In this document: positions 4,530-30,490 of the stretch, one piece after another
How positions within the stretch are numbered: the first letter of the stretch is position 1
How the letters are laid out: each line of letters starts with the position of its first letter
NCBI GenBank assembly: GCA_000002445.1
Contig: CP000070.1
Location: 160,001 to 224,000 of the forward strand
Direction of reading: 5' to 3'
DNA from: Trypanosoma brucei
Lineage: Eukaryota
DNA: 64,000 nucleotides
Position numbers and translations under genes: made by a program
The notes under the pieces: generated by a model
The model's input: the letters and a program-made list of their open reading frames with translations, nothing else
Databases searched by the model: none
Told to the model about the DNA's origin: nothing

Positions 4530-6401
4530 TCAGTTTCTCGGTGGGATAAATATATCACCGTCGTCATCCTCGTCGTCACTACCGGTGAAATTGGTCACAC
4601 TTACGTCTCGCCACATCTCAGGATCACTGATGCCTTCGTGAGAGGTGTTTGAAGTAAAGGCCCGCGGTGCATCATTCCCGGAAGCACGTCGATTGTTGTT
4701 GGTTCCATTAGCCACCGCCTCGTTGCTGTCTTCTTCACCAGTTTCTGAACTTGTCAGCTCAGCATCGTCGTTGATGTTTCCAACATTGTCATTATCAATA
4801 AAGATTCGATTATCCCGCCCTTGATCGTTGTAACGTTCCACATGTGCTCCAGAAGCCGAGAGTCTGACCGTTTCGGACGCTCCTAAGCCCCCGTGAGCGG
4901 CGAGCCCCAGTGTTTCACGGAACTCCCGGAGGCGCCTCATGTGTTGGTCTCTCTCCTCTTGTTTCATCAGTAATAGCTCCTTTTTTTCGGCCTCATCTCC
5001 TCCACGGGCCCACGCCGTTACAAGGCGCCGCTCACCGTCGAAAACTGGTCGGTCATCCAGATGAAACAATTTGCTGCAGCGCGCGAGTACGGTCTTTCGA
5101 TACCGCGGAATGGTTCTCACGAGGGGATTACCAGACAGCTTCAAGGCCCTCAGACGATACATTCGCTCCAATACGAGAAGAACTGCCTCACCATCGGCAA
5201 GTTGGTTGTTGCTGAGGTCCAGTACCGAAAGGTTCTTGTAGCACAGTAGCTGAATTATGTCGTTCGCTGCGGTGAGATAATTACAAGCTAGATTTAGTGT
5301 ACGGAGGGAACTACAGGGAGTGCGATACTCGTCAGGGACCTCACTAAGAGGTTTGCCATCTTCTAGCGGATCCAGTGGTTTATGCGGACAGAAGGAGGCA
5401 TATGCATCCAATCGTTTGCACCATGCCTCCAAGTTCCCATCCCTCCCGGGGTCATTAACTGCGTTTCCGACATCACAACCGTCACCGCTAACCTTTTCAT
5501 TGATATGTATCCCTTCTTCTTGCGTTACTTCTGGACTGCCGGTGGCATCCTCGGTTATCTCGTCGGATTGCTGCTGCAACAACTTCCCCCCGGTGGGAGA
5601 ACTATTCAGTTCGCGCTGCATGCTCTTGGAGTTGGCCACAATAGCATTAGCCTTCGTGGTCAGCTCCTCCTCGTATTGCGCAGCCTTTTTATCGAAAGGC
5701 GCACAGGAGACTTCGACAGAGCGAATACAGTTGCTGGATAAGTTAACGGAGTCCAGAAACTGAAACGAACTTAAGTCTGGCATACGTCGCAATGCGTTGT
5801 TATGCAAATACAACTGGCGCAGCGTCGGGTAGAGAGATTGAAACACGTCCTTGGTGGCCCTTCCCGCGTTACATGACGACTTGGTGGCAGTCGACTTAAA
5901 AGCAAGCGCCGCGGCGCCATCGGTTTTACTATTTATACCATATTCTGCCGACCTCACGCACCCTGCAGCACCCGAGGAATCCACCTGAGATCTTTCCAAC
6001 CAGTCCGCACAGCAATCCAAGTGGGCACTTTTGGACATAACCTGTGTCGTGTCAGTAGCGCTCGCTTCCGTATACGCGTTCACCTCTTCTTCAGTTCCTG
6101 CACCCTGCCCCTCCGCCTGCACATTGCATGGTTGGCTATCTTTCCCGCAATGAATAACAGTGAAGGCATTGCCCTCCAACCAAAGCACCTTCACATCCGT
6201 GTAAGGATCAAAGGCACCCTCTTCAATACTATCAAATCCCTTATTGTGCAGGTAAAGCTTTTCATTACATACTGGGTTGCGGTAAAATCCAGTCTTGACA
6301 CAAATGCGCTTTATGACATCGGTTGTGATGGTCGTGGAGAGTGAATTTTCCGTCATACTTCGGTTGCTCTTCCAACCGATGGCAAGGTTGTTAGGCTCCA
6401 A
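4530..6401 (-). CDS. DNAAF1: Dynein axonemal assembly factor 1 (LRRC50/ODA7) homolog. LRR + LRRcap protein with a ~200-aa lineage-specific insertion after the first LRR.
   Basis: 623-aa ORF. KRICVKTGFYRNPVCNEKLYLHNKGFDSIEEGAFDPYTDVKVLWLEGNAF and LKLSGNPLVRTIPRYRKTVLARCSKLFHLDDRPVFDGERRLVTAWARGGDEAEKKE line up closely with human DNAAF1 (…[31 protein letters not shown]… and …[49 protein letters not shown]…). The true start may be the internal Met at MTENSL. Confidence 0.8.
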   Translation of the reverse strand: MEPNNLAIGWKSNRSMTENSLSTTITTDVIKRICVKTGFYRNPVCNEKLYLHNKGFDSIEEGAFDPYTDVKVLWLEGNAFTVIHCGKDSQPCNVQAEGQGAGTEEEVNAYTEASATDTTQVMSKSAHLDCCADWLERSQVDSSGAAGCVRSAEYGINSKTDGAAALAFKSTATKSSCNAGRATKDVFQSLYPTLRQLYLHNNALRRMPDLSSFQFLDSVNLSSNCIRSVEVSCAPFDKKAAQYEEELTTKANAIVANSKSMQRELNSSPTGGKLLQQQSDEITEDATGSPEVTQEEGIHINEKVSGDGCDVGNAVNDPGRDGNLEAWCKRLDAYASFCPHKPLDPLEDGKPLSEVPDEYRTPCSSLRTLNLACNYLTAANDIIQLLCYKNLSVLDLSNNQLADGEAVLLVLERMYRLRALKLSGNPLVRTIPRYRKTVLARCSKLFHLDDRPVFDGERRLVTAWARGGDEAEKKELLLMKQEERDQHMRRLREFRETLGLAAHGGLGASETVRLSASGAHVERYNDQGRDNRIFIDNDNVGNINDDAELTSSETGEEDSNEAVANGTNNNRRASGNDAPRAFTSNTSHEGISDPEMWRDVSVTNFTGSDDEDDDGDIFIPPRN

Positions 6402-12771: not shown

Positions 12772-14481
12772 TTAGTTGTCTTCACTCTCAAGGGGAGTGC
12801 TTCCACGCACGTGGACATGAAACCCCTTCAGAAGAAACCTCCTCTCCTCTGAAGGTCCTGAAAGTGGAGGTTGAGTGTCGTCCTTTTCCATGTAAATGAC
12901 GTTATCGCACATTGTGCCACAACTGACGTCGCCCTCTAAACGAACAGTGCCCTCCAAAGCATTCTTCTGAAGGGAAGGATGTTGCGCAGGAATGGGCGGC
13001 GGCCTTGGCACGTCAGCGTCCTCCTCTTCCTCACCTTCTTCTTCCACTTCTTCGTTCTCATTTTCTTCAGCTTCCCGCTGTGCACGCTCGCAGGCCACTC
13101 TCTCAACAGCTTCTGCATCAGGTGGTATAGGTGGCACACGACCTTTTACAAGGATGCACTCCCTCCCACACCATCTAATCGCACAGCACTTAACTTTAGC
13201 AGCGCCACACTCTCCAGTGAAGAGTATGCCCACAGTACTATGGCTTTCCAGCCGCAGGAACTTCAATTCGGTGCCCGCGCAACCGTCGACAAGCATAACC
13301 CCAATATCTGTGTGGGCAATAAAGCAGTCACGCACGGAAACATCCGCATCGTCCAGATACAGTGCTACGTTGCACATAGCCTTTGTAGGTATCTTGGGTT
13401 GGGATACGACCTTCTTCCACCGATTCTTCAGGCGAAATAAGGGGCTTTGTTGTGCATGACGCGCAGCACGAAACTGGTCGGCGGTATACGTGGTTGGCGT
13501 TCCCTCAACAGGACCCAAAATCATGGAGGTGTGGATCTGCAGTGAGCACCGTGGATACGCGTAAAGCGCCTGCTTCGCACTGCCGTAAATAATGCAGAAC
13601 TCTATCAGCGCCTCGCTAAGAGGGTGGGCCACTACTGTTGGCAGCACTGGAGGTTCCGTAGATGGTTGACACGTAGTCGTTTCCACGGCCTCGGTCGTCG
13701 CTAAGGGATCTTTCCTCTGTAATGCATAATCGCCGAAGACACAGTGGCGGAATGTGGATCTGGTGAGTGGATTAAGCTCGATACCCCCAAAGAAGCATAA
13801 ACCTTGCATTTCCAGATGATTATCCTTTGCTTTGTGAACCATCTCAGCCTCCTCTGTGGACCCCTCTGGAGCATCGTCGGCATTTTCCTCCTCTTCATCC
13901 CCATCAGCCACTCTATCCTGCTCATCATCATAGTGTTTAATGCCCTGCAATCCCTCAGGAATTTCCGCGTCTTCATCGACAGAAACAAACGGCCGACTGT
14001 GACGCACTATCAGTCGCCCTTCAATCACTGGAAACAGTTGGGGATCTGGTGCTGTAGGGGTTACAGTTGCGGTAGCAGGTGCTTCACCACCGTAGGGCGC
14101 GTACCATGGGCCCAATCGGCGCTCGTCCCTTGGAATATGGATCTTCTTGCGATAACCAGCCTTCCGCCCCAGTGCCACCGGGACGCTCATAATCCGTAAG
14201 CCATCCAGTCGAGACTCCTCAATGACCACCTCTTTCTCAAGATAGGCGCCAGGGTACACGATCACAAGGTCCTCACGGTATGTCACCGCGTCCAACGCTT
14301 CCTGCAGCTTCTGCATGCTACTAAAACCACCCACGTAAAATGTACTTGGTCCATCTTCCAGCTGGGAGAGATCGTTTGATTCCTCCCACTCCTCTTCTTC
14401 TTCCTCTTCTTCTTCCTCTTCCTCCTCTTCTTCTTCCTCTTCTTCTTCACGTGCTTCAAGCTCGCTTTTCTTCGGAGGCAT
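12772..14481 (-). CDS. Hypothetical protein (569 aa) with an N-terminal poly-Glu tract, a second acidic patch, and a possible beta-helix-like C-terminal half.
   Basis: ORF MPPKKSELEAREEEEEEEEEEEEEEEEEEEEWEE..., encoded by (GAA/GAG)n at 14388-14452. Later a GxxG/Cys-rich region CFIAHTDIGVMLVDGCAGTELKFLRLESHSTVGILFTGECGAAKVKCCAIRWCGRECILVKG. Confidence 0.6.
   Translation of the reverse strand: MPPKKSELEAREEEEEEEEEEEEEEEEEEEEWEESNDLSQLEDGPSTFYVGGFSSMQKLQEALDAVTYREDLVIVYPGAYLEKEVVIEESRLDGLRIMSVPVALGRKAGYRKKIHIPRDERRLGPWYAPYGGEAPATATVTPTAPDPQLFPVIEGRLIVRHSRPFVSVDEDAEIPEGLQGIKHYDDEQDRVADGDEEEENADDAPEGSTEEAEMVHKAKDNHLEMQGLCFFGGIELNPLTRSTFRHCVFGDYALQRKDPLATTEAVETTTCQPSTEPPVLPTVVAHPLSEALIEFCIIYGSAKQALYAYPRCSLQIHTSMILGPVEGTPTTYTADQFRAARHAQQSPLFRLKNRWKKVVSQPKIPTKAMCNVALYLDDADVSVRDCFIAHTDIGVMLVDGCAGTELKFLRLESHSTVGILFTGECGAAKVKCCAIRWCGRECILVKGRVPPIPPDAEAVERVACERAQREAEENENEEVEEEGEEEEDADVPRPPPIPAQHPSLQKNALEGTVRLEGDVSCGTMCDNVIYMEKDDTQPPLSGPSEERRFLLKGFHVHVRGSTPLESEDN
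14388..14452 (-). repeat. Coding trinucleotide repeat (GAR)n giving a ~22-residue poly-Glu run.
   Basis: The + strand shows (ttc/ctc)n over ~65 nt, in frame within CDS 12772..14481. Confidence 0.85.
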
Positions 14482-21531: not shown

Positions 21532-23163
21532 CTAAAGCGATGCTTCGTCAGGTAACACTCCCTCGCGGAATGCCTCCTTCATCCGCTGGGACAGCTCCGG
21601 TGCAAGATCGTTGCCGTAGTGCGATAAGAGCGCCTGCAGTTGCCTCCCCTCCTCCGCCGTTATGGGGCGCACACGCTTTCCTGTTTTTGGGTCGACGAGA
21701 TCGTCCTTCTGCTCCATCACTATCGCAACCATATCATTTGCTTGGGAAAAAATGACCTGCAGACACTTCTTGGGCACGTATATTTTCAGCGTGACAACGA
21801 CATCGAGTATGCTAAGGATGACGGGTAGTGCTGGGTACTCAACTTCGTCAAGGCGGCACCCGATCTGCTCACCCATTGCGCGGAGCTTCTGCCGAGTCGG
21901 TTCCGCATTCATCGCATTGCGACCTCCATCACTTACTTGATTGAAACATGTGCGTATGGCAATCATGGCGGCGTTCGCCATATGATGGGTAAGCTGATCG
22001 GAGGTACAAATACGCTCTACTAACCGTTCACACACCTCCAGGCGCATGGTGCGCCACTTACGCAATACGTGGGCGAGCGTGGCACACTCGTGCGGGGTAA
22101 AGTCACCCACGTGATTCGTGGCACGGATAGCTAATGGCTCAAGGTGAAATGGCGTAAGGTCATGTACTGTATAACACTGCAATACACCGAGTAGTGACGG
22201 TAGGTCGAAGTCATTCGCGAGGACTCCAACACGGCGAGACATCGCCAGCAACACCTTACGGCGGATATCCAGTGTCTCTTTGGCACATCCACGACGGGTT
22301 TTAAAAAGACGAGTTGAAAATGCCTTAACGGAAGACATGTCAATGTTCTCGTAATTACTGAATTTGAGAAGTGATTTCTCCATGCGATTCCAAAGGTGCC
22401 TGTTGTAAAAGTTGGCTGTAACAACATGCGTTGTCACATACAACACATCATCAGCAGAGAGGACACCGTCACCATCGCGACGTAACACCTCAACCGTTAG
22501 CATTCGCATAGCCGCTGTGTACTGCTTCTCTTCCAACCAATCCCGTTCTTTTAGCGAAGTTGTGTAATAAAGTGTCCGGCGTAGCTCGTGCATCCCTGCA
22601 CGCTGCAACAAGGGTGTTGTTTGCATTTGCTTTACTAATGCTGTCATTTCATTGGTCGCCGACGTCTTCAGCTCCTCAACGAATTCCTCCATGCCTTCCT
22701 GCGTAAGAATTTCAGCGCTAGCACTGAGTGCATTCTGGGCTTTCAGTTGCACCGCCAATTCATCCGCCTTTGCAACACACTCCGACAGTACGTCACAATG
22801 AGCGGTGATGGCGGTGGAGGTGACCGGAAGGGAGCCGTTGACTCCAGATCCCGGTGAGTACGACACGGGAAGCGGGCCTTCCATTGCCACCGCCTCCCCT
22901 CCCCCAGTTCCAACATTTAACGAAGGATTGGTAACAGGTGACAGCGGTGAACCGGTGACGGGTGGCCCAGAGGACGCAATCCATCGTTTTGTGTCAAGAA
23001 CTGTAAAACCTGCCTTCGGTAGCACGGTAACTACCGGGTAGCGGCGATACAACAGATTCCTACTGAAAACTCGTTCATGGTAACCAATGCCAGAATGTAC
23101 AGAATGTTTGGACGACAGTAAACTCCCCACATCCTGACAACATAAAACTACCCGACGTCGCAT
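21532..23163 (-). CDS. Hypothetical protein (543 aa), possibly organellar given its Arg-rich N-terminus.
   Basis: Long ORF on the unit strand. N-terminus MRRRVVLCCQDVGSLLSS. Mostly helical-looking, Leu/Ala-rich body. Confidence 0.6.
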   Translation of the reverse strand: MRRRVVLCCQDVGSLLSSKHSVHSGIGYHERVFSRNLLYRRYPVVTVLPKAGFTVLDTKRWIASSGPPVTGSPLSPVTNPSLNVGTGGGEAVAMEGPLPVSYSPGSGVNGSLPVTSTAITAHCDVLSECVAKADELAVQLKAQNALSASAEILTQEGMEEFVEELKTSATNEMTALVKQMQTTPLLQRAGMHELRRTLYYTTSLKERDWLEEKQYTAAMRMLTVEVLRRDGDGVLSADDVLYVTTHVVTANFYNRHLWNRMEKSLLKFSNYENIDMSSVKAFSTRLFKTRRGCAKETLDIRRKVLLAMSRRVGVLANDFDLPSLLGVLQCYTVHDLTPFHLEPLAIRATNHVGDFTPHECATLAHVLRKWRTMRLEVCERLVERICTSDQLTHHMANAAMIAIRTCFNQVSDGGRNAMNAEPTRQKLRAMGEQIGCRLDEVEYPALPVILSILDVVVTLKIYVPKKCLQVIFSQANDMVAIVMEQKDDLVDPKTGKRVRPITAEEGRQLQALLSHYGNDLAPELSQRMKEAFREGVLPDEASL

Positions 23164-24356
23164 GCGCGAAATCCCTTCACCTGATCCGCTCTAAGAGAAG
23201 AGAAACTTAAAGACATGCACAAAGTGTTGCGAGTGATCGTTGGAAGCATTGAGAAAACGGTAGTACTACAACACTCGCACTGATGCAGATCCATTGAACA
23301 CACACTAGAGGGAGAGCTCGTTGAGGATAAAGTAAAGATTTGGAGCTTTAATCTCTTTTGCACGAGGGCAACAAACTCCGTACAGAAAATAAAAAGTTCC
23401 CTCGTGGAAAAACACAAGCTACACGAAGCATAACACCACGCACGGAGGGCACAACGACCCGGGGTAGCATAAGCAAAGAAAAAAACCTTAAAAAAATTAA
23501 TAACACGATATATGTTCTGATCGTCGCTGTTGCCCTTCCAACCTAGCCTACCGCACAAAAGCGGAGGCAAAGAAGGATTTAAAAGGAGGGGGTGAATTTA
23601 AATGCTATCTTGCACATAATAAGTTGTAATGTGGGTTATACATCGCTTAGCACAACTAACTGATGCCACATAATTGATAAACTAAAAGGTGGGGAAAGAA
23701 GAAACTCCTCTCCCCTTCTATCCCATGACTCATGGTAGAGCAACCACACAACAACCTGCGCAGTGTCGCACATGGGTAAAATCTATTGGAGGAGCTGCGC
23801 GTAAACAGTCGGTATCAAAACAGGTCGCAAGTTTTCTAACAGAGACCGGCAACGGAGAAAATTACAAAAACCAACGTGCGACAAAAAAGGGGATACAGAG
23901 GAGAAACGTTGCCTCTAAATCTGAGCAACTGCACACGTTGTTGCTCACAAGTACAGGAGAAACAAAGATATGAGGAATATGCCAAGTAAGCAGTCAAGCG
24001 TGGGAATGAAGGAAGGAAGGTATCTCGTGCGACACACTAAAGGGGACGCAACCGGTTCCGCGTCAGCTACGGGGAAGTGAAAAAAAGAAACTTGAAAAAC
24101 ACACCCAATATATATGCATATATGCTCTCACTTGATTTCGCCATCCTTCACGTGCAGTTATTGACGGTTCCCTCGAAATATTGCACGGGAACTGCCATGT
24201 TCTATAGGAGGTGAAACTCGTATCAGAGACACCACTGGCAACCACCAAACGGTACACGCATGCCACAAAGCAAATGCAGAAGCAAGTATGCAGGGAAAAA
24301 ATTTAACCGTCAAACGGAAGTTCACGCATGGTCCCAACACGACAGCACGCAATTAT

Positions 24357-27300
24357 TTACCATGAACTACTACACGACTCCGTCTCATGGCTCTTTGCGG
24401 TGCGGTCATTAGTGTGCGAATCCCGCCCAGAACTTGTTTCTGACCTGGTGTCATCACTGACATCACTGGTGGCATCTGATTTAGTATCTTTGATATCCGT
24501 AGCGGTATCTGCAGTAGCTGGTTCCTGTTCAACACTGGTAACAGATTTCGCATCATCACTAACATCACTGGTGGCATCTGATTTAGTATCTTTGATATCC
24601 GTAGCGGTATCTGCAGTAGCTGGTTCCTGTTCAACACTGGTAACAGATTTCGCATCATCACTAACATCACTGGTGGCATCTGATTTAGTATCTTTGATAT
24701 CCGTAGCGGTATCTGCAGTAGCTGGTTCCTGTTCAACACTGGTAACAGATTTCGCATCATCACTAACATCACTGGTGGCATCTGATTTAGTATCTTTGAT
24801 ATCCGTAGCGGTATCTGCAGTAGCTGGTTCCTGTTCAACACTGGTAACAGATTTCGCATCATCACTAACATCACTGGTGGCATCTGATTTAGTATCTTTG
24901 ATATCCGTAGCGGTATCTGCAGTAGCTGGTTCCTGTTCAACACTGGTAACAGATTTCGCATCATCACTAACATCACTGGTGGCATCTGATTTAGTATCTT
25001 TGATATCCGTAGCGGTATCTGCAGTAGCTGGTTCCTGTTCAACACTGGTAACAGATTTCGCATCATCACTAACATCACTGGTGGCATCTGATTTAGTATC
25101 TTTGATATCCGTAGCGGTATCTGCAGTAGCTGGTTCCTGTTCAACACTGGTAACAGATTTCGCATCATCACTAACATCACTGGTGGCATCTGATTTAGTA
25201 TCTTTGATATCCGTAGCGGTATCTGCAGTAGCTGGTTCCTGTTCAACACTGGTAACAGATTTCGCATCATCACTAACATCACTGGTGGCATCTGATTTAG
25301 TATCTTTGATATCCGTAGCGGTATCTGCAGTAGCTGGTTCCTGTTCAACACTGGTAACAGATTTCGCATCATCACTAACATCACTGGTGGCATCTGATTT
25401 AGTATCTTTGATATCCGTAGCGGTATCTGCAGTAGCTGGTTCCTGTTCAACACTGGTAACAGATTTCGCATCATCACTAACATCACTGGTGGCATCTGAT
25501 TTAGTATCTTTGATATCCGTAGCGGTATCTGCAGTAGCTGGTTCCTGTTCAACACTGGTAACAGATTTCGCATCATCACTAACATCACTGGTAGTGTATG
25601 GCTTAGTCGCCCGAGATTTCGTGGTGGCGTCCGACGGTGTTGGCCCCTGCCCTACGCTTGCGGCGGACTGTGTGCCGTCGCTTACTTCAGAGGCAGCCTC
25701 TGATTTTGGTTCCAATGATTTCGTGGTATTTTCCAACAGGTCCCGTTGTTGCTCATCAGCCCTCCTCGCGGAGCCCTCAATGACAGTTCCTTCAACAGGG
25801 TTGACAACACCTTTAGTGGTGGGCTCCTGCTCATCACTGGCATTTGATAGCGCACCTTTACCTATCTTGGTAAGACTCGCTACATTCGAAACTTCACCTG
25901 CTGAAACATTACCACCCGTATGTGCCTCTTCGTTGGATCCTCCTCCCGATCGCCGGTCAACACTCAACCCTGCAGCTCCCATTCCATTCGTTTCCTTTGC
26001 TTTTAGAACGGTGTCCCTTACGGTGGAAGCCTTCTCCTTGCAAGTCTTTAAATGTGCTCCGTGGCTGATGTCAGTAACTCTGTTTAATTTATCGTTTGGA
26101 GCCACTGTGACACAGCCTTCAACGGCAGACTCGTGTTTGTGACCGGTGCCCAGTAACTCATTCTGCGGAGCACCGCTACTCTTTTGTACAATCATCCCCA
26201 TGGTTGTGTGCCGGGGCAAACCCGCGGGGCTGTCGCTGGAAAGTTGATGTTTCACCGATGCGGTGTCTGCTTCGTCAGTTCGTACAGTCGCTTGCGATGC
26301 GCTTCTAAAATCCTGATATCTCCTCAAGTTTTCCTCTCCCGTCATGTGTGGCTTCTGGTTCCCTAAAACTTTAGTCGATTGGACACTTTTCGCGGAATCA
26401 CACGATGATGGACGCACGATTCGACGCTCCTCTACCCCTTCGTCCGTTACATGCCTAAGCGTAACCCCCAATTCCCCACCCTGCATCTCCTCTCGGTTTA
26501 ACAACTTCTGTTTCGCTCCAAGGTGCGATACTAGCCAACGGTTGTACGCATCTTCTAGATGGTGTAATAATACCTCCTTGCGATTCACGTCATATTCTCC
26601 CCCCTCTCCACAATTTTCCCTTTCTATCTCCTCTACCTCATGTTCGAGAAGCAGCTGTTCTACTACTCGTTTGTGAAGCATGCGAGCTTGCTGATAGCTT
26701 CTGATCCCGTCGAAGTAGCGGTGGAAAACACTCTCAGTCATTTGTGCACCATCGGGCAAGGGACATCCCGGTACTCTGCCATCAAATAAAGAAGCATCAC
26801 GTGTCCCGCGTCCTTCTATTTCAGGTCTATTGTGGGAGAAATTTCCCCGCGTCCTCCGGTTTCGAAGTGTAGTGATGTCCCTAGCCCCAGTTCCACGAGA
26901 CGAAGTGGACCCAGAAAGACCGGGGTAAGAAACTCCTAGAGCTGCAAACGAATCAGCAGCAGTCACTCCGAACTTATTTCTGTTGCTGTTGAAACTGAGC
27001 CCACCCACATGCTGCTGCAGTGATGGGGACAATTTATTACGGGATTGGTCACACGATGTTGCTCCTGAACGAGACCGGGAAGAACTATTAAAACGCATGG
27101 ACGAATATGCAGACATTGGTGCATCACCTGTACCTGATGCATAGAAACGGTGAAATCTCTTGGGAGTCTGGACGCGCCTGCTGGGTGACCTTCTTTCAAA
27201 CGAGTATAATTTCACCAGTTTCGGCTCTCCTAAGTCAAAGATCGAGTCGTCCTGTTGCATTCGTTGTGGCATTCCCACATTTGTTCCGGGAGATACCCTC

Positions 27301-28907
27301 GTACGACGATTCCGTTGGGGCGAGACAGACATGCGTCTACCATTAACAGGACTCTGGGGGGAAGCGTTAATTGGCCAGTTTTGCGAGTAACTCCAGTGAG
27401 TGGTACTTGCAGAGTTGGGCATCCCGCTCGACCTTCGAGTTGAAGCATTAGGAGTACACATTCCATCCCTTGATTGGGAATTGCCTTGGTTCCCAGATAA
27501 CGCACGCCAATAAGTGCTGGAGGGCAAATAACCGCCACTAATGTCCGTACGTTGATGACCCTCTCCGTATACAGGGGACGTGGACGATCCGTTATCTGCT
27601 CTCATATGTGTCTCCCCTGTCGGATTTAATGAAAGTTTGTCTACTCGAGTGCCTGGGCGGCTGCAATGAGGTGTGCAGAAAGAATAACCATTTTGCCGCT
27701 GCCCCTCAATCTCTTCTTGCTCCCGGGATTGTCCACCACTCATGGGTCTCCAATGGTCAATGCCAGGTCGAGATAAATTACATGAGGAGCAACGGGACCC
27801 ATCAAAGCCACTGCATGACCTCGGCACCCGCATCGGTGAGGCGGGAGCAGCCGTAAATAGATGCTGAGCTGCAGGTTGGGAATGCGATGACACACCAAAC
27901 GACCCACACGAAAGACTGTTCGGACTACGTGATCCGCAAGGTACACTTTGAATGCAACTGCCATGCACGACCCCGGAGCCTGCGTGAGCAGCCACTGGAA
28001 TTCCACTCCCATAACTGGCTCTGCGAACACTATCAAAGTCCCTGGAGTCCCTGACACTGTTTCCCATATAGTTATTTAACTTAGTAAAAAACAGTTGTTG
28101 TTTCTGCTTCATACAGGGAAAGTCATTACCAACCACTCCTGTGGACCCCGCATTGCCACCCCCGTGAGCACATGGCTTCCCCCCTCCATCAGCATCACTG
28201 CAGTCAGCAGCGCGGCTGCCGTGGCGGTCACCATCTTTGCACCCTTCGGTAAACGATCCGTCGATTATGGAAGACGGTGGTCGAGTGACTGTTGGGTCTT
28301 GCTTGCGGGAATGGTATCCACGTATTATGCATGAATGGGAAATCGCGCTGAGTTCCTTTCCGAGTTGTTCCATGGCAAGTCGGCGCCTTAAAACGGAACA
28401 GCAATCACCAACTGCTTCGGTTGTATCTATCAGATATTTTGCACTCTCTAACCGCAGGAGGGCCTGCTGGAAGCAATTGTGCTGAATGAAGACACGCGCC
28501 TCCCCGAATTTCTGCCAGGCGATGTCTAATGCCGCATGAACCCTCTTGCGAGCCTCGTCTCCAGTACTACTTGTAGGCCTTTCACACCCGTGGAATGAAT
28601 GCGGTGGTTTTGACTCACCTCGAACGGATTTCCCCCCCCTTCCTTCGGAATCTGGTCTCACTGATCGAACCCTCGTCCTCCGTTGAAGCGGTGTGTAGTC
28701 AAGTCCCCGCGTCAGTGGCGTCGCACTCTGCGCCCGGGAAGAAGGCCTCGAAGTTTTGTGGCTCACAACACTGCTTCTTCGTGGAGCTCTACCTCGACCA
28801 GCCGCACCTGCAGGTGTTGCACAGGATACCCATTGTCTTGATCTAAAAATGAAGTCTGAATCAGACAAATGACCCTTCGCGTCTCTTCCAACGGCGATCA
28901 CCCTCAT
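24357..28907 (-). CDS. Large repetitive protein (1516 aa). Its C-terminal ~380 aa consist of ~11 perfect 34-aa acidic Ser/Thr/Asp-rich repeats. The centre is a Ser/Pro/Arg/Gly-rich low-complexity region.
   Basis: Single ORF. The 34-aa unit SDVSDDAKSVTSVEQEPATADTATDIKDTKSDAT is encoded by a 102-bp tandem array. Architecture resembles kinetoplastid tandem-repeat surface, cytoskeletal or antigen proteins. Confidence 0.75.
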   Translation of the reverse strand: MRVIAVGRDAKGHLSDSDFIFRSRQWVSCATPAGAAGRGRAPRRSSVVSHKTSRPSSRAQSATPLTRGLDYTPLQRRTRVRSVRPDSEGRGGKSVRGESKPPHSFHGCERPTSSTGDEARKRVHAALDIAWQKFGEARVFIQHNCFQQALLRLESAKYLIDTTEAVGDCCSVLRRRLAMEQLGKELSAISHSCIIRGYHSRKQDPTVTRPPSSIIDGSFTEGCKDGDRHGSRAADCSDADGGGKPCAHGGGNAGSTGVVGNDFPCMKQKQQLFFTKLNNYMGNSVRDSRDFDSVRRASYGSGIPVAAHAGSGVVHGSCIQSVPCGSRSPNSLSCGSFGVSSHSQPAAQHLFTAAPASPMRVPRSCSGFDGSRCSSCNLSRPGIDHWRPMSGGQSREQEEIEGQRQNGYSFCTPHCSRPGTRVDKLSLNPTGETHMRADNGSSTSPVYGEGHQRTDISGGYLPSSTYWRALSGNQGNSQSRDGMCTPNASTRRSSGMPNSASTTHWSYSQNWPINASPQSPVNGRRMSVSPQRNRRTRVSPGTNVGMPQRMQQDDSIFDLGEPKLVKLYSFERRSPSRRVQTPKRFHRFYASGTGDAPMSAYSSMRFNSSSRSRSGATSCDQSRNKLSPSLQQHVGGLSFNSNRNKFGVTAADSFAALGVSYPGLSGSTSSRGTGARDITTLRNRRTRGNFSHNRPEIEGRGTRDASLFDGRVPGCPLPDGAQMTESVFHRYFDGIRSYQQARMLHKRVVEQLLLEHEVEEIERENCGEGGEYDVNRKEVLLHHLEDAYNRWLVSHLGAKQKLLNREEMQGGELGVTLRHVTDEGVEERRIVRPSSCDSAKSVQSTKVLGNQKPHMTGEENLRRYQDFRSASQATVRTDEADTASVKHQLSSDSPAGLPRHTTMGMIVQKSSGAPQNELLGTGHKHESAVEGCVTVAPNDKLNRVTDISHGAHLKTCKEKASTVRDTVLKAKETNGMGAAGLSVDRRSGGGSNEEAHTGGNVSAGEVSNVASLTKIGKGALSNASDEQEPTTKGVVNPVEGTVIEGSARRADEQQRDLLENTTKSLEPKSEAASEVSDGTQSAASVGQGPTPSDATTKSRATKPYTTSDVSDDAKSVTSVEQEPATADTATDIKDTKSDATSDVSDDAKSVTSVEQEPATADTATDIKDTKSDATSDVSDDAKSVTSVEQEPATADTATDIKDTKSDATSDVSDDAKSVTSVEQEPATADTATDIKDTKSDATSDVSDDAKSVTSVEQEPATADTATDIKDTKSDATSDVSDDAKSVTSVEQEPATADTATDIKDTKSDATSDVSDDAKSVTSVEQEPATADTATDIKDTKSDATSDVSDDAKSVTSVEQEPATADTATDIKDTKSDATSDVSDDAKSVTSVEQEPATADTATDIKDTKSDATSDVSDDAKSVTSVEQEPATADTATDIKDTKSDATSDVSDDAKSVTSVEQEPATADTATDIKDTKSDATSDVSDDTRSETSSGRDSHTNDRTAKSHETESCSSSW
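24455..25595 (-). repeat. Tandem array of ~11 near-identical 102-bp units (in-frame coding repeats).
   Basis: Unit ...catcactggtggcatctgatttagtatctttgatatccgtagcggtatctgcagtagctggttcctgttcaacactggtaacagatttcgcatcatcactaa... recurs head-to-tail with no visible mismatches across ~1.14 kb. Antisense frames are also open, which explains + ORF 24328..26142 and the alternate-frame ORF 24353..25588. Confidence 0.9.
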
Positions 28908-28935
28908 GACGCCCTAAGAGAAAGAAGTTAATGTC

Positions 28936-28964
28936 AAAAAAAAAAAATATATATATATATATAT
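28936..28964. repeat. Poly-A followed by an (AT)9 microsatellite in the intergenic region.
   Basis: aaaaaaaaaaaatatatatatatatatat. Confidence 0.9.
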
Positions 28965-29569: not shown

Positions 29570-30490
29570 TCACATGCCTGGTGTCGGGGTACTACTCTTC
29601 TCTACAGCGGCAAATCTTTTAATCTCATTGATAATCTGCTGATTGGCTTTTCTCAGATACTTCACTTCCTCCTCGTGGATCTTCTGTTCGGACTGCTTCT
29701 GCTCCTCGAAGCGCTTCAGCATCCCATTGTGCTTTGCTCGTAACTCATTCACACGATTCTCGAGTCGACGCACCTCGCTTTCCATCCATTCTTTCTCCTT
29801 GAATAGATAGCTTCTCAAATCACGCTCAATGGCCTTTCGTACGGTATATTGAGAGGCACTATCAAACAGAATATCGTACGTATTTGTTGTTTGCTGCATC
29901 TCCTCCGCCAATTCGGCTAGCAGCAACCCACGTTCCGGACAGAGCACAGTCACCTGTCGAATAACCTCCCGCATTCCATCTGCGTATATCCCCTCCCGAA
30001 TAGTGCATACCACTCCAGAGGGACGTGCATGCTCCTGTTGACAGCGCCGCTCCAAGTGTTCCTGAAGGTGAACACAGTCCAAACGGCTCGTGTGATCAAC
30101 GGCAGCAGCCTTCATCCATGCACATTCCTGCTCCTGCCCGCGGGTATTGGTACGATCCTTATCGTGTCCCGGCACGTTGAGTGGCACGGGGGGAAACAAT
30201 TTGGCGAGGGCTTTTACTGGAGTTAAACTTTCCTGAGTGAGTCGCACTGGTCCCCCATCCGACTGAATGGCGTCTCGTGTGCCGGCAACCCCGCTTTGCG
30301 TTTGCCCGAACTTTTGTCTATTGGTGGTGGGAATGGTGGGCGCCTCTTGGCCCGCGGCGGCGGCTGTAGCAGCATTAACCGCTGCAGCCGTGATCGGCTC
30401 ATCGTCACTAATTAAGTTTGAAGGAACAGCACGATACAACACGGTGCCTTCCTCATCGTAAACGTTCGGTGGTGCGTTCAAGGTTGCCAT
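29570..30490 (-). CDS. DNALI1: Axonemal inner-arm dynein light chain p28 (DNALI1 family).
   Basis: 306-aa ORF. LCPERGLLLAELAEEMQQTTNTYDILFDSASQYTVRKAIE and EEEVKYLRKANQQIINEIKR match the conserved core and C-terminal coiled coil of p28/DNALI1 (…ERGLLLLRVRDE…QTLYESS.AFG.RKAL…NEEIQFLKRTNQQLKAQLE). Confidence 0.75.
   Translation of the reverse strand: MATLNAPPNVYDEEGTVLYRAVPSNLISDDEPITAAAVNAATAAAAGQEAPTIPTTNRQKFGQTQSGVAGTRDAIQSDGGPVRLTQESLTPVKALAKLFPPVPLNVPGHDKDRTNTRGQEQECAWMKAAAVDHTSRLDCVHLQEHLERRCQQEHARPSGVVCTIREGIYADGMREVIRQVTVLCPERGLLLAELAEEMQQTTNTYDILFDSASQYTVRKAIERDLRSYLFKEKEWMESEVRRLENRVNELRAKHNGMLKRFEEQKQSEQKIHEEEVKYLRKANQQIINEIKRFAAVEKSSTPTPGM

Follow-up and report, generated by a model that had tools for sequence, protein, structure and literature searches.

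Tb927.7.810, a protein-coding gene of Trypanosoma brucei, contains a genuine array of 102-bp tandem repeats. The interpretation favoured here, with a probability of about 80%, is that this is a genuine coding minisatellite near the C-terminus, translated into a multiply phosphorylated, disordered tail on a Trypanosoma-specific and probably intracellular protein. The window analysed is a stretch of 64,000 nucleotides from contig CP000070.1, and coordinates are counted from its first letter.

Host gene, repeat array and reading frame

The host gene is found on the minus strand at 24357..28907, as determined from the list of open reading frames (ORFs) and from an exact protein match in NCBI and UniProt. 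Its product is XP_845705.1 (Q57VS7), a protein of 1516 aa annotated as "hypothetical protein, conserved" on chromosome 7 of T. brucei brucei TREU927. In the protein collection, the exact sequence is recorded for a single contig, the 2,205,233-bp TREU927 chromosome; this match bears out the kinetoplastid origin proposed in the first-pass annotation. The gene identifier is derived from the neighbouring genes, which encode RESC10 (Tb927.7.800) and a dynein light chain (Tb927.7.820, Q57VS8), and from phosphosite numbering, which fits the XP_845705.1 sequence. The ATG aligns with the N-termini of the orthologues. A polypyrimidine tract (T12 plus a CT-rich stretch), followed by an AG 7 nt 5' of the ATG, is located at 28914..28947 (minus strand); given what is generally known of trypanosome mRNA processing, this is likely to be the trans-splice acceptor region of the gene. 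The stop codon (24357-24359) is preceded by SCSSSW, after the degenerate terminal unit of the array. Apart from one plus-strand ORF (see below), the window has its large ORFs exclusively on the minus strand, which is the expectation for one polycistronic unit. No Rfam family matches anywhere in the window.

Tandem Repeats Finder identifies a single array at 24451..25592 (minus strand), with a period of 102 bp, 11.2 copies, 99% matches, no indels and a score of 2277. In its register, positions 24553-25572 comprise ten base-for-base identical units, and a single mismatch is found in the unit at 24451-24552. There are 11 exact copies of a 47-nt piece of the unit; shuffled sequences are expected to give none. 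About 11 perfect, essentially identical in-frame units had been claimed at 24455-25595; this description holds, and its coordinates are at most 4 nt off the Tandem Repeats Finder call. The 11.2 copies run head to tail and in frame, with a period of 34 codons, inside the 1516-aa ORF; the repeats do belong to a real gene.

In codon register, the ten identical units occupy 24480..25499 (minus strand; aa 1137-1476), and each corresponds to SDATSDVSDDAKSVTSVEQEPATADTATDIKDTK. The first unit of the array (25500..25601, minus strand; aa 1103-1136) starts with PYTT instead of SDAT; it has 5 nucleotide differences from the repeat unit, all within the first 9 nt. Degenerate units are present at both edges: SEAASEVSDGTQSAASVGQGPTPSDATTKSRATK upstream (25602..25703, minus strand; 54% nucleotide identity to the unit) and SDATSDVSDDTRSETSSGRDSHTNDRTAKSHETE at the terminal end (24378..24479, minus strand; 61%). 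Both exceed the maximum of 49% found among 1034 in-frame windows of Tb927.7.810, which served as the null for unit identity (mean 27%, sd 4.6%). Homogenised interior units (10 identical) between diverged edge units are characteristic of concerted evolution. Identical units may undergo unequal recombination, gene conversion or replication slippage among themselves, by which the array would grow, shrink and homogenise; any of these would produce identical interior units and decayed edge units, as well as haplotype differences in copy number and unit variants.

Two additional ORFs overlap the array: an antisense ORF of 604 aa (24328..26142, plus strand) and an alternate-frame ORF of 411 aa (24353..25588, minus strand). 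Each is open for more than 1.2 kb, but the chance that either is a real gene is negligible. Their codon usage is at or below background, with log-odds of 0.02 (plus frame) and 0.12 (alternate frame) compared with 0.40 for the annotated frame; the non-repeat portion of the plus-strand ORF scores -0.38. Both are absent from a collection of 15 billion proteins, and the minus-strand orientation of the other large ORFs also speaks against them, as do the phosphopeptides, which fit the annotated frame instead. In a simulation where the same peptide was encoded by random synonymous codons, two extra frames were open in 46% of cases; open frames are therefore expected from the unit peptide, and it is not remarkable that three of the six frames are open. 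Both ORFs are by-products held open by the repeat, as the first-pass annotation had supposed. Codon usage identifies the annotated frame as the coding frame, as does the fact that the protein upstream of the array is conserved in other Trypanosoma species. It is also the expressed frame of the repeat: besides the codon usage of 0.40, published phosphosites fit its numbering and its residues.

Copy number and unit variants among Trypanozoon assemblies

The corresponding loci in DAL972, IVM-t1 and OVI were located via flanking genes. There are 11.2 copies in TREU927, 6.2 in T. b. gambiense DAL972 and 3.2 in the IVM-t1 hybrid assembly. TREU927 is longer than DAL972 by 510 nt (exactly 5 units) and longer than IVM-t1 by 816 nt (exactly 8 units). 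The DAL972 array is 629 bp in length, and its units are told apart by SNPs, which read V, A (plus a silent change), L, A, A, V from unit to unit. Variant T41C (Val to Ala) is common to DAL972 and IVM-t1 units; it is absent from TREU927 units and from the approximately 1.6 OVI units that were assembled. The coding flanks of the array fall into the same two haplotype groups as the units (TREU927/OVI and DAL972/IVM-t1), and in the region just upstream these haplotypes are separated by 9 non-synonymous differences and 1 synonymous one. The TREU927 assembly has ten identical units; variant units are found in DAL972 and IVM-t1.

The locus is troublesome in independent assemblies. The OVI assembly (2x150-bp reads, Velvet) is broken at both array edges and gives no unit count; on one side the contig runs 160 nt into the array before stopping, and on the other the sequence breaks off 12 nt short of the last partial unit. 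In IVM-t1, the array (323 bp) is about as long as one MiSeq read and the assembly includes only about 7,500 PacBio reads; the 3.2 copies may therefore be collapsed. In T. congolense IL3000, the chromosomal array disagrees with an unplaced 2.8-kb contig which ends in repeats. With two of the four Trypanozoon assemblies unreliable at this locus, it could be argued that the differences are all artefacts and that every strain has the same true copy number. This is unlikely: the DAL972 array is SNP-marked and, at 629 bp, should be readable in single Sanger reads; its difference from TREU927 comes to exactly five units; and unit composition also differs between the two haplotype groups. Judging by the assembled sequences, copy number is probably polymorphic between strains.

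It is quite possible, though not the favoured reading, that the array is real but that its TREU927 version is an assembly construct, in which the count was estimated or collapsed or unit variants were smoothed to a consensus. The TREU927 count and the perfect identity are both taken from the assembly and not from reads; ten identical units over 1020 bp make array-internal reads unplaceable, and the 1.14-kb array exceeds the length of a Sanger read, as used in the BAC-based genome project of 2005. The OVI breaks, the low count in the largely short-read IVM-t1 assembly, the variant units in DAL972 and IVM-t1 and the discordant T. congolense versions are all consistent with this. However, TREU927 chromosome 7 is reportedly finished, clone-based Sanger sequence. 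Neither the flanks nor the reading frame is disrupted, and the length amounts to an exact unit multiple. OVI, which has a closely related haplotype, contains only the TREU927-type unit in its assembled parts, and an identical interior with decayed edges is the usual signature of a recently homogenised array. The first-pass annotation had asked whether the copy number was real or artefactual. The array is real, the count varies with the assembly, and exactly 11 units in the TREU927 reference is plausible.

The reference length of 1516 aa should accordingly not be trusted to the unit. Primer design, tagging, knock-out and MS quantification of Tb927.7.810 should allow for strain- and haplotype-dependent numbers between 3 and at least 11 units. 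The array is also a candidate marker by which Trypanozoon haplotypes could be typed, with length scored in whole units.

Phosphorylation and structure of the protein

The 34-residue unit has a pI of 4.05 and contains 26% D+E and 32% Ser/Thr, in agreement with its earlier description as acidic and Ser/Thr-rich. Over the array tail (approximately 374 residues), this amounts to a net charge of about -65 and 121 Ser/Thr residues. Phosphorylation of the unit had been considered plausible, and four phosphosites within it (S1137, T1140, S1141 and S1144) have been published for bloodstream-form Lister 427, each with a localisation probability above 0.95 (McLaughlin et al. 2024, PMC11408851, supplementary dataset 2, sheet '1HR'). 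These are unit positions 1, 4, 5 and 8, encoded in the first perfect unit at 25476..25499 (minus strand); the residue identities were checked against XP_845705.1. The array is thus translated and modified, and the proteomics check suggested in the first-pass annotation yields phosphopeptides which match the annotated frame. The phosphosite peptide, SDATSDVSDDAK, is present in all perfect units; a single molecule can contribute up to ten or eleven identical peptides, which inflates the signal. Phosphopeptide abundances of the unit have been found to shift upon a chromosome-internal double-strand break, and the inflated signal should be weighed in reading 'DNA-damage responsive' calls.

No signal-peptide-like or transmembrane-like hydrophobic segments are found in the 1516-aa protein, so it is probably intracellular. 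Its composition is on the disordered side of the charge-hydropathy boundary, and it is predicted to be mostly disordered, with two small conserved helical modules. The first of these is a three-helix module at aa 114-203 (28299..28568, minus strand; LDxAWxKFGEARV...QLGxEL), defined by invariant orthologue columns and AlphaFold2; it is the sole part of the protein with a high-confidence model (pLDDT about 90). A fold search with this module against the PDB gave nothing significant (best E = 0.63). Several MIT-type three-helix bundles are included among the non-significant matches. The second is a helical hairpin at aa 738-810 (26478..26696, minus strand; Y..AR.LH..V..LL ... LE.AY..WL..HL), based on the orthologue alignment and AlphaFold2. 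The alignment also reveals a conserved short motif, DLGEPKLVKLYSFE, at aa 558-571 (27195..27236, minus strand).

For the array itself, single-sequence AlphaFold2 gives three strands per 34-aa unit throughout (pTM 0.47), a model which would mildly contradict a disordered tail. If correct, the array would be a regular beta-solenoid with a length set by copy number, but this is very unlikely. A confident or solved regular fold would be expected, and the model has a pLDDT of only about 60, without alignment depth. AlphaFold2 builds solenoids from perfect repeats, and such models are unreliable. The strong negative charge and the scarcity of hydrophobic residues also argue against a solenoid, as do four phosphosites within eight residues, which imply kinase access. 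The tail most likely functions as an extension that is flexible, highly charged and regulated by phosphorylation; its length would be under no tight constraint.

Orthologues and known repeat proteins

Orthologues of Tb927.7.810 are found only in Trypanosoma. The protein upstream of the array is conserved in T. congolense, T. cruzi, T. theileri, T. conorhini, T. rangeli and T. grayi; no repeats are found in the stercorarian orthologues (T. cruzi, T. theileri and T. conorhini). No Pfam family matches the protein or its orthologues, and a PDB sequence search with the protein gave no match. A whole-protein search of 5.8 billion clusters, using a word index of limited sensitivity, returned the DAL972 orthologue alone. 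A profile built from five orthologues gave the same single hit and missed its own members, so it is uninformative for this low-complexity family. Among searchable papers, no main text mentions the accessions, the gene identifier or the tryptic peptides, and no serological data on the protein were found. The gene is also absent from the supplements of TrypTag, the cell-cycle phosphoproteome and the repeat-landscape paper, as far as the available portions of these go (the phosphoproteome file is partial).

The T. congolense IL3000 orthologue (G0UPD3, CCC91244.1; 1300 aa) has the N-terminal conserved modules in common with T. brucei. It also has an array in the corresponding place, on the C-terminal side of the last pair of conserved helices. 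Its unit differs: it is 41 aa long (AKESVSRSISEAKGKSPVAGSSGHGSAVMSEAPTAVEAVAE) and present in approximately 4.5 copies, and it has no significant similarity to the 34-aa T. brucei unit (E = 0.15) or to the sequence preceding the T. brucei array (E = 1.5). Neither unit has significant homology to the single-copy tail of the other of these two species. It is conceivable, though doubtful, that unrelated segments were amplified independently in different salivarian trypanosomes, in each case at this C-terminal position, with selection, as opposed to neutral processes, acting on a length-variable, phospho-regulated tail. Phosphorylation of the unit, the phosphopeptide changes after a double-strand break and the 9:1 ratio of non-synonymous to synonymous differences upstream of the array would fit such selection. 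If this were true, the tail might serve bloodstream-dwelling trypanosomes as a scaffold in signalling, or as a decoy for antibodies upon release from lysed cells.

Leaving selection aside, Tb927.7.810 is an ordinary, previously uncharacterised kinetoplastid tandem-repeat protein. It is a further case of a disordered tail with a lineage-specific expansion of repeats, which will not surprise specialists, and its array is a candidate repeat antigen. Tandem-repeat proteins and antigens of African trypanosomes include GM6, the microtubule-associated repetitive proteins (MARPs) and TbgI2/TbgI17. Like Tb927.7.810, these are non-secreted proteins with long in-frame arrays of near-identical units, each tens of residues in length; high Tandem Repeats Finder scores and copy numbers that are hard to assemble are also held in common. 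For the unit of Tb927.7.810, the search of 5.8 billion clusters detected no relative in other proteins, and no sequence relation to the described antigen families (GM6, MARP, I2/I17, K39 and others) is seen at the limited sensitivity of the word index.

Diagnostic repeat antigens of other kinetoplastids include the 39-aa repeats of the Leishmania kinesin K39 and the T. cruzi antigens SAPA, B13 and TcCA-2. Their architecture of homogenised, hydrophilic, charged coding repeats is shared with Tb927.7.810, whereas the host proteins and unit sequences are unrelated; the T. cruzi orthologue of Tb927.7.810 has no repeats. Coding minisatellites (VNTRs) such as the mucin-type arrays provide a broader comparison. 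Mucin-type arrays are Pro/Thr-rich and glycosylated, in contrast to the acidic, phosphorylated tail of Tb927.7.810, a protein without a signal peptide. As at Tb927.7.810, coding VNTRs have homogenised interiors and decayed edges, and they break or collapse in short-read assemblies; their length polymorphism in whole units would likewise match the differences between the assembled arrays.

Anatomy of the array and its host gene

The minus strand of Tb927.7.810 carries, near the 3' end of the gene, an in-frame tandem array of a 102-bp unit encoding 34 residues. Tandem Repeats Finder reports one array at 24451-25592, with a period of 102 bp and 11.2 copies (99% matches, zero indels, score 2277). 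In this register ten successive units (24553-25572) are identical base for base, and the unit at 24451-24552 has a single mismatch. A 47-nt piece of the unit has 11 mismatch-free occurrences, against none in shuffled sequence. The first-pass annotation, which placed about 11 perfect repeats at 24455-25595, was thus right. The 64-kb window contains no N runs and no second comparable array; its only other repeats are a perfect (TA)16 microsatellite (39960-39991), which is intergenic and lies downstream of a TEP1-like gene, and a short TCT/12-mer repeat (14390-14448) within the 5' end of the minus-strand ORF 12772-14481.

Read in codon register on the minus strand, the array begins with a degenerate unit, SEAASEVSDGTQSAASVGQGPTPSDATTKSRATK (25602-25703; 54% nucleotide identity to the unit). 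This is followed by a first unit with PYTT for SDAT (25500-25601; differences confined to the first 9 nt), ten perfect units of SDATSDVSDDAKSVTSVEQEPATADTATDIKDTK (24480-25499; aa 1137-1476), and a degenerate last unit, SDATSDVSDDTRSETSSGRDSHTNDRTAKSHETE (24378-24479; 61% identity), after which come SCSSSW and the stop codon. Elsewhere in the gene, in-frame windows match the unit at 27% +/- 4.6% identity (maximum 49%); both edge units exceed this maximum and are therefore true decayed copies. In tandem arrays generally, unequal exchange or gene conversion leaves a homogenised interior and decayed edges. Such exchange inside this array would account for its identical interior units and decayed ends.

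The array sits in a 1516-aa ORF (24357-28907, minus strand), the translation of which matches XP_845705.1 / AAZ12146.1 / Q57VS7 exactly; Q57VS7 is annotated as 'hypothetical protein, conserved' from Trypanosoma brucei brucei TREU927. The gene is flanked by RESC10/MRB800 (Tb927.7.800; 21532-23163) and an axonemal dynein light chain (29570-30490; Tb927.7.820 / Q57VS8, as paired in a proteomics supplement), and is therefore Tb927.7.810. This identity is confirmed by site numbers in a phosphoproteomics table, which land on Ser/Thr residues of this sequence. Of the window's 20 ORFs of 250 aa or longer, the only one not on the minus strand is kept open by the repeats; kinetoplastid polycistronic units show this layout. 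A polypyrimidine tract followed by AG immediately upstream of the ATG is consistent with a trans-splice acceptor. Two genes upstream lies a 2806-aa protein (31360-39780, minus strand), annotated as 'telomerase-associated protein, putative' (TEP1-like), that has a TROVE domain at its N-terminus and WD40 propellers at its C-terminus.

Two further ORFs overlap the array: a plus-strand ORF (24328-26142) and an alternate-frame minus-strand ORF (24353-25588). Both are present as first described, and their dismissal as spurious holds. Codon usage was scored as log-odds with the window's 17 other genes as the training set; these genes themselves range from 0.08 to 0.25. On this scale the unit scores 0.40 in the annotated frame, 0.02 in the plus frame and 0.12 in the alternate frame; outside the array, the plus-strand ORF scores -0.38. 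Neither ORF was found among ~15 billion proteins. Random synonymous re-encoding of the array peptide opened at least one extra frame in all trials and exactly two in 46% of them, so the two ORFs are expected by-products of the repeat.

Copy number and haplotypes in Trypanozoon

The first-pass annotation also asked whether the copy number was true or an artefact of assembly. A 1.14-kb array of identical units is longer than a Sanger read; the published count for TREU927, the reference strain, must therefore have rested on clone-size or finishing evidence. Three further Trypanozoon assemblies were located via the flanking genes. T. b. gambiense DAL972 (FN554970.1) has 6.2 copies (98% matches), and its protein of 1346 aa is 170 aa, or exactly 5 units, shorter than that of TREU927. 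Its units are heterogeneous: three carry T41C (Val to Ala), one carries C2T (Ser to Leu), and the silent change A102G is seen in one. The copy number in T. b. equiperdum IVM-t1 (CM010678.1) is 3.2, which is below that of TREU927 by exactly 8 units, and T41C is present in the last full unit there. This assembly combines 2x300-bp MiSeq contigs with only 7,508 PacBio reads under TREU927-guided scaffolding, and the array may be collapsed, since its 323 bp is about one read length. The T. equiperdum OVI assembly (2x150-bp MiSeq, Velvet) is broken at the array; one contig stops 160 nt inside it and the other starts 12 nt before the final partial unit.

The IVM-t1 gene copy also has a 1-nt deletion (~5075-5079) within a GGG run that lies at CDS position 5, giving a stop at codon 3. 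It is otherwise open and 99.4% identical, and the IVM-t1 record annotates no gene between the dynein light chain and RESC10. The deletion may represent true pseudogenisation or an error of sequencing or polishing.

By their flanking coding sequence, these genomes form two haplotype groups. One comprises TREU927 and OVI, with 2 differences in 3475 nt; in the other, DAL972 and IVM-t1 have a common set of differences from TREU927. The T41C unit variant tracks the latter group. The array is real, and its length very likely varies between haplotypes in whole units. The DAL972 count is the most trustworthy because that array is short and internally marked; the TREU927 figure of 11 stands as an assembly count only, and the homogeneity of the TREU927-type array is plausible.

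Between TREU927/OVI and DAL972/IVM-t1, aa 1-800 have 6 non-synonymous and 7-8 synonymous differences (pN/pS ~0.23), and the pre-array region (aa 801-1102; 25602-26506) has 9 and 1. The contrast gives p = 0.03 in Fisher's exact test, on small counts from one haplotype pair, and would fit either relaxed constraint or diversifying selection in the C-terminal half.

Phosphorylation and predicted structure

As first described, the unit is acidic and Ser/Thr-rich: SDATSDVSDDAKSVTSVEQEPATADTATDIKDTK has a pI of 4.05, a net charge of ~-6.5, 26% Asp+Glu and 32% Ser+Thr. The array of 374 residues has a net charge of ~-65 and 121 Ser/Thr, and its composition falls on the disordered side of the charge-hydropathy boundary. 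Each unit is predicted to yield the tryptic peptides SDATSDVSDDAK and SVTSVEQEPATADTATDIK. In McLaughlin et al. 2024 (PMC11408851), bloodstream-form Lister 427 cells were analysed by SILAC phosphoproteomics with the TREU927 proteome as search database. Four Tb927.7.810 sites are among those significantly changed after a chromosome-internal I-SceI double-strand break (supplementary dataset 2): S1137 (log2 induced/uninduced +1.54), T1140 (+2.42), S1141 (-2.45) and S1144 (+2.17), each with a localisation probability >0.95. These residues are S/T/S/S at positions 1, 4, 5 and 8 of the first perfect unit. The repeat is therefore translated and multiply phosphorylated, as had been thought plausible from its composition.

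Because every perfect unit yields the same phosphopeptide, the software would give its first occurrence; we infer that the signal is a sum over all copies. With the same peptide ten or eleven times per molecule, quantification and 'site' counts are inflated and ambiguous. The opposite sign at S1141 is probably due to one peptide shifting between phospho-isoforms, and we would not read it as evidence for a role in DNA repair.

In a single-sequence AlphaFold2 run (24360-25910), each unit contributes three strands to a regular solenoid (pLDDT ~60, pTM 0.47). A beta-solenoid fold is nevertheless improbable: confidence is low, and the array is extremely negatively charged, poor in hydrophobic residues and densely phosphorylated, so the model is probably a perfect-repeat artefact.

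In the host protein, an AlphaFold2 model built with a five-sequence alignment gives a confident three-helix module (aa 114-203, pLDDT ~90) and a helical hairpin (aa 738-810, pLDDT 60-83), with 633 of 815 residues below 50; the protein is predicted to be largely disordered. Foldseek against PDB gave no significant match (best E = 0.63), the non-significant ones including generic three-helix bundles, several MIT domains among these, and a profile search of PDB sequences found nothing. There is no transmembrane-like or signal-peptide-like segment (top 19-residue hydropathy 0.99), so the protein is probably intracellular.

Lineage distribution and class

The protein is genus-specific. When 1.84 billion representatives were searched exhaustively with HMMER using non-repeat aa 1-1106, relatives were found in Trypanosoma only, plus one read-archive-assembly sequence: a 1300-aa protein and a partial contig in T. 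congolense, proteins of ~1030 aa in T. theileri, T. conorhini and T. cruzi, two gene models in T. rangeli and fragments in T. grayi. The T. rangeli AM80 orthologue is divided between the adjacent models RNF08545 and RNF08546, and the T. grayi pieces lie on two separate contigs, which points to frameshifts or breaks in assembly within the protein's long disordered middle in these draft genomes. Four alignment blocks are conserved (the N-terminus and aa 127-186, 558-571 and 732-796), the third with the motif DLGEPxLVxLYxFE; the remainder is divergent. A Pfam scan of Tb927.7.810 and all orthologues found no family.

In T. cruzi, T. theileri and T. conorhini the protein ends shortly past the last conserved helix pair, with a short conserved C-terminal motif instead of repeats. 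At the equivalent location T. congolense has an array of its own, a 41-aa unit in ~4.5 copies, followed by a Ser/Asp-rich tail. This unit has no significant similarity to the T. brucei unit or pre-array sequence; the top T. congolense match of the T. brucei unit is a single-copy tail piece (E = 0.15). Two readings remain: independent amplification of different segments in two salivarian species, or divergence beyond recognition.

T. congolense IL3000 itself has two discordant arrays. The chromosome copy (aa 943-1147) has ~4.5 units, predominantly of SISEAKGK type, and an unplaced 2811-bp contig terminates within at least 5.6 SISESKGK-type units with AK/AE alternating. These are either two alleles or mis-assembly.

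The reference genome annotation already includes Tb927.7.810, and a published supplement (PMC11408851) lists its phosphosites; no discussion of it was found in the searchable literature. In practice, caution is due over protein length and peptide multiplicity, the two extra ORFs can be set aside as spurious, and the array is a possible length marker for haplotype typing. A word-indexed protein search found no sequence relationship to described repeat antigens. Its negatives weigh little for this family, since low-complexity words apparently swamp the candidate list: its sole match was the gambiense orthologue, despite T. cruzi, T. theileri, T. conorhini and T. congolense orthologues in the query alignment. 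In structure the array belongs with the kinetoplastid tandem-repeat proteins; it works as theirs do, and as coding minisatellites do in general.
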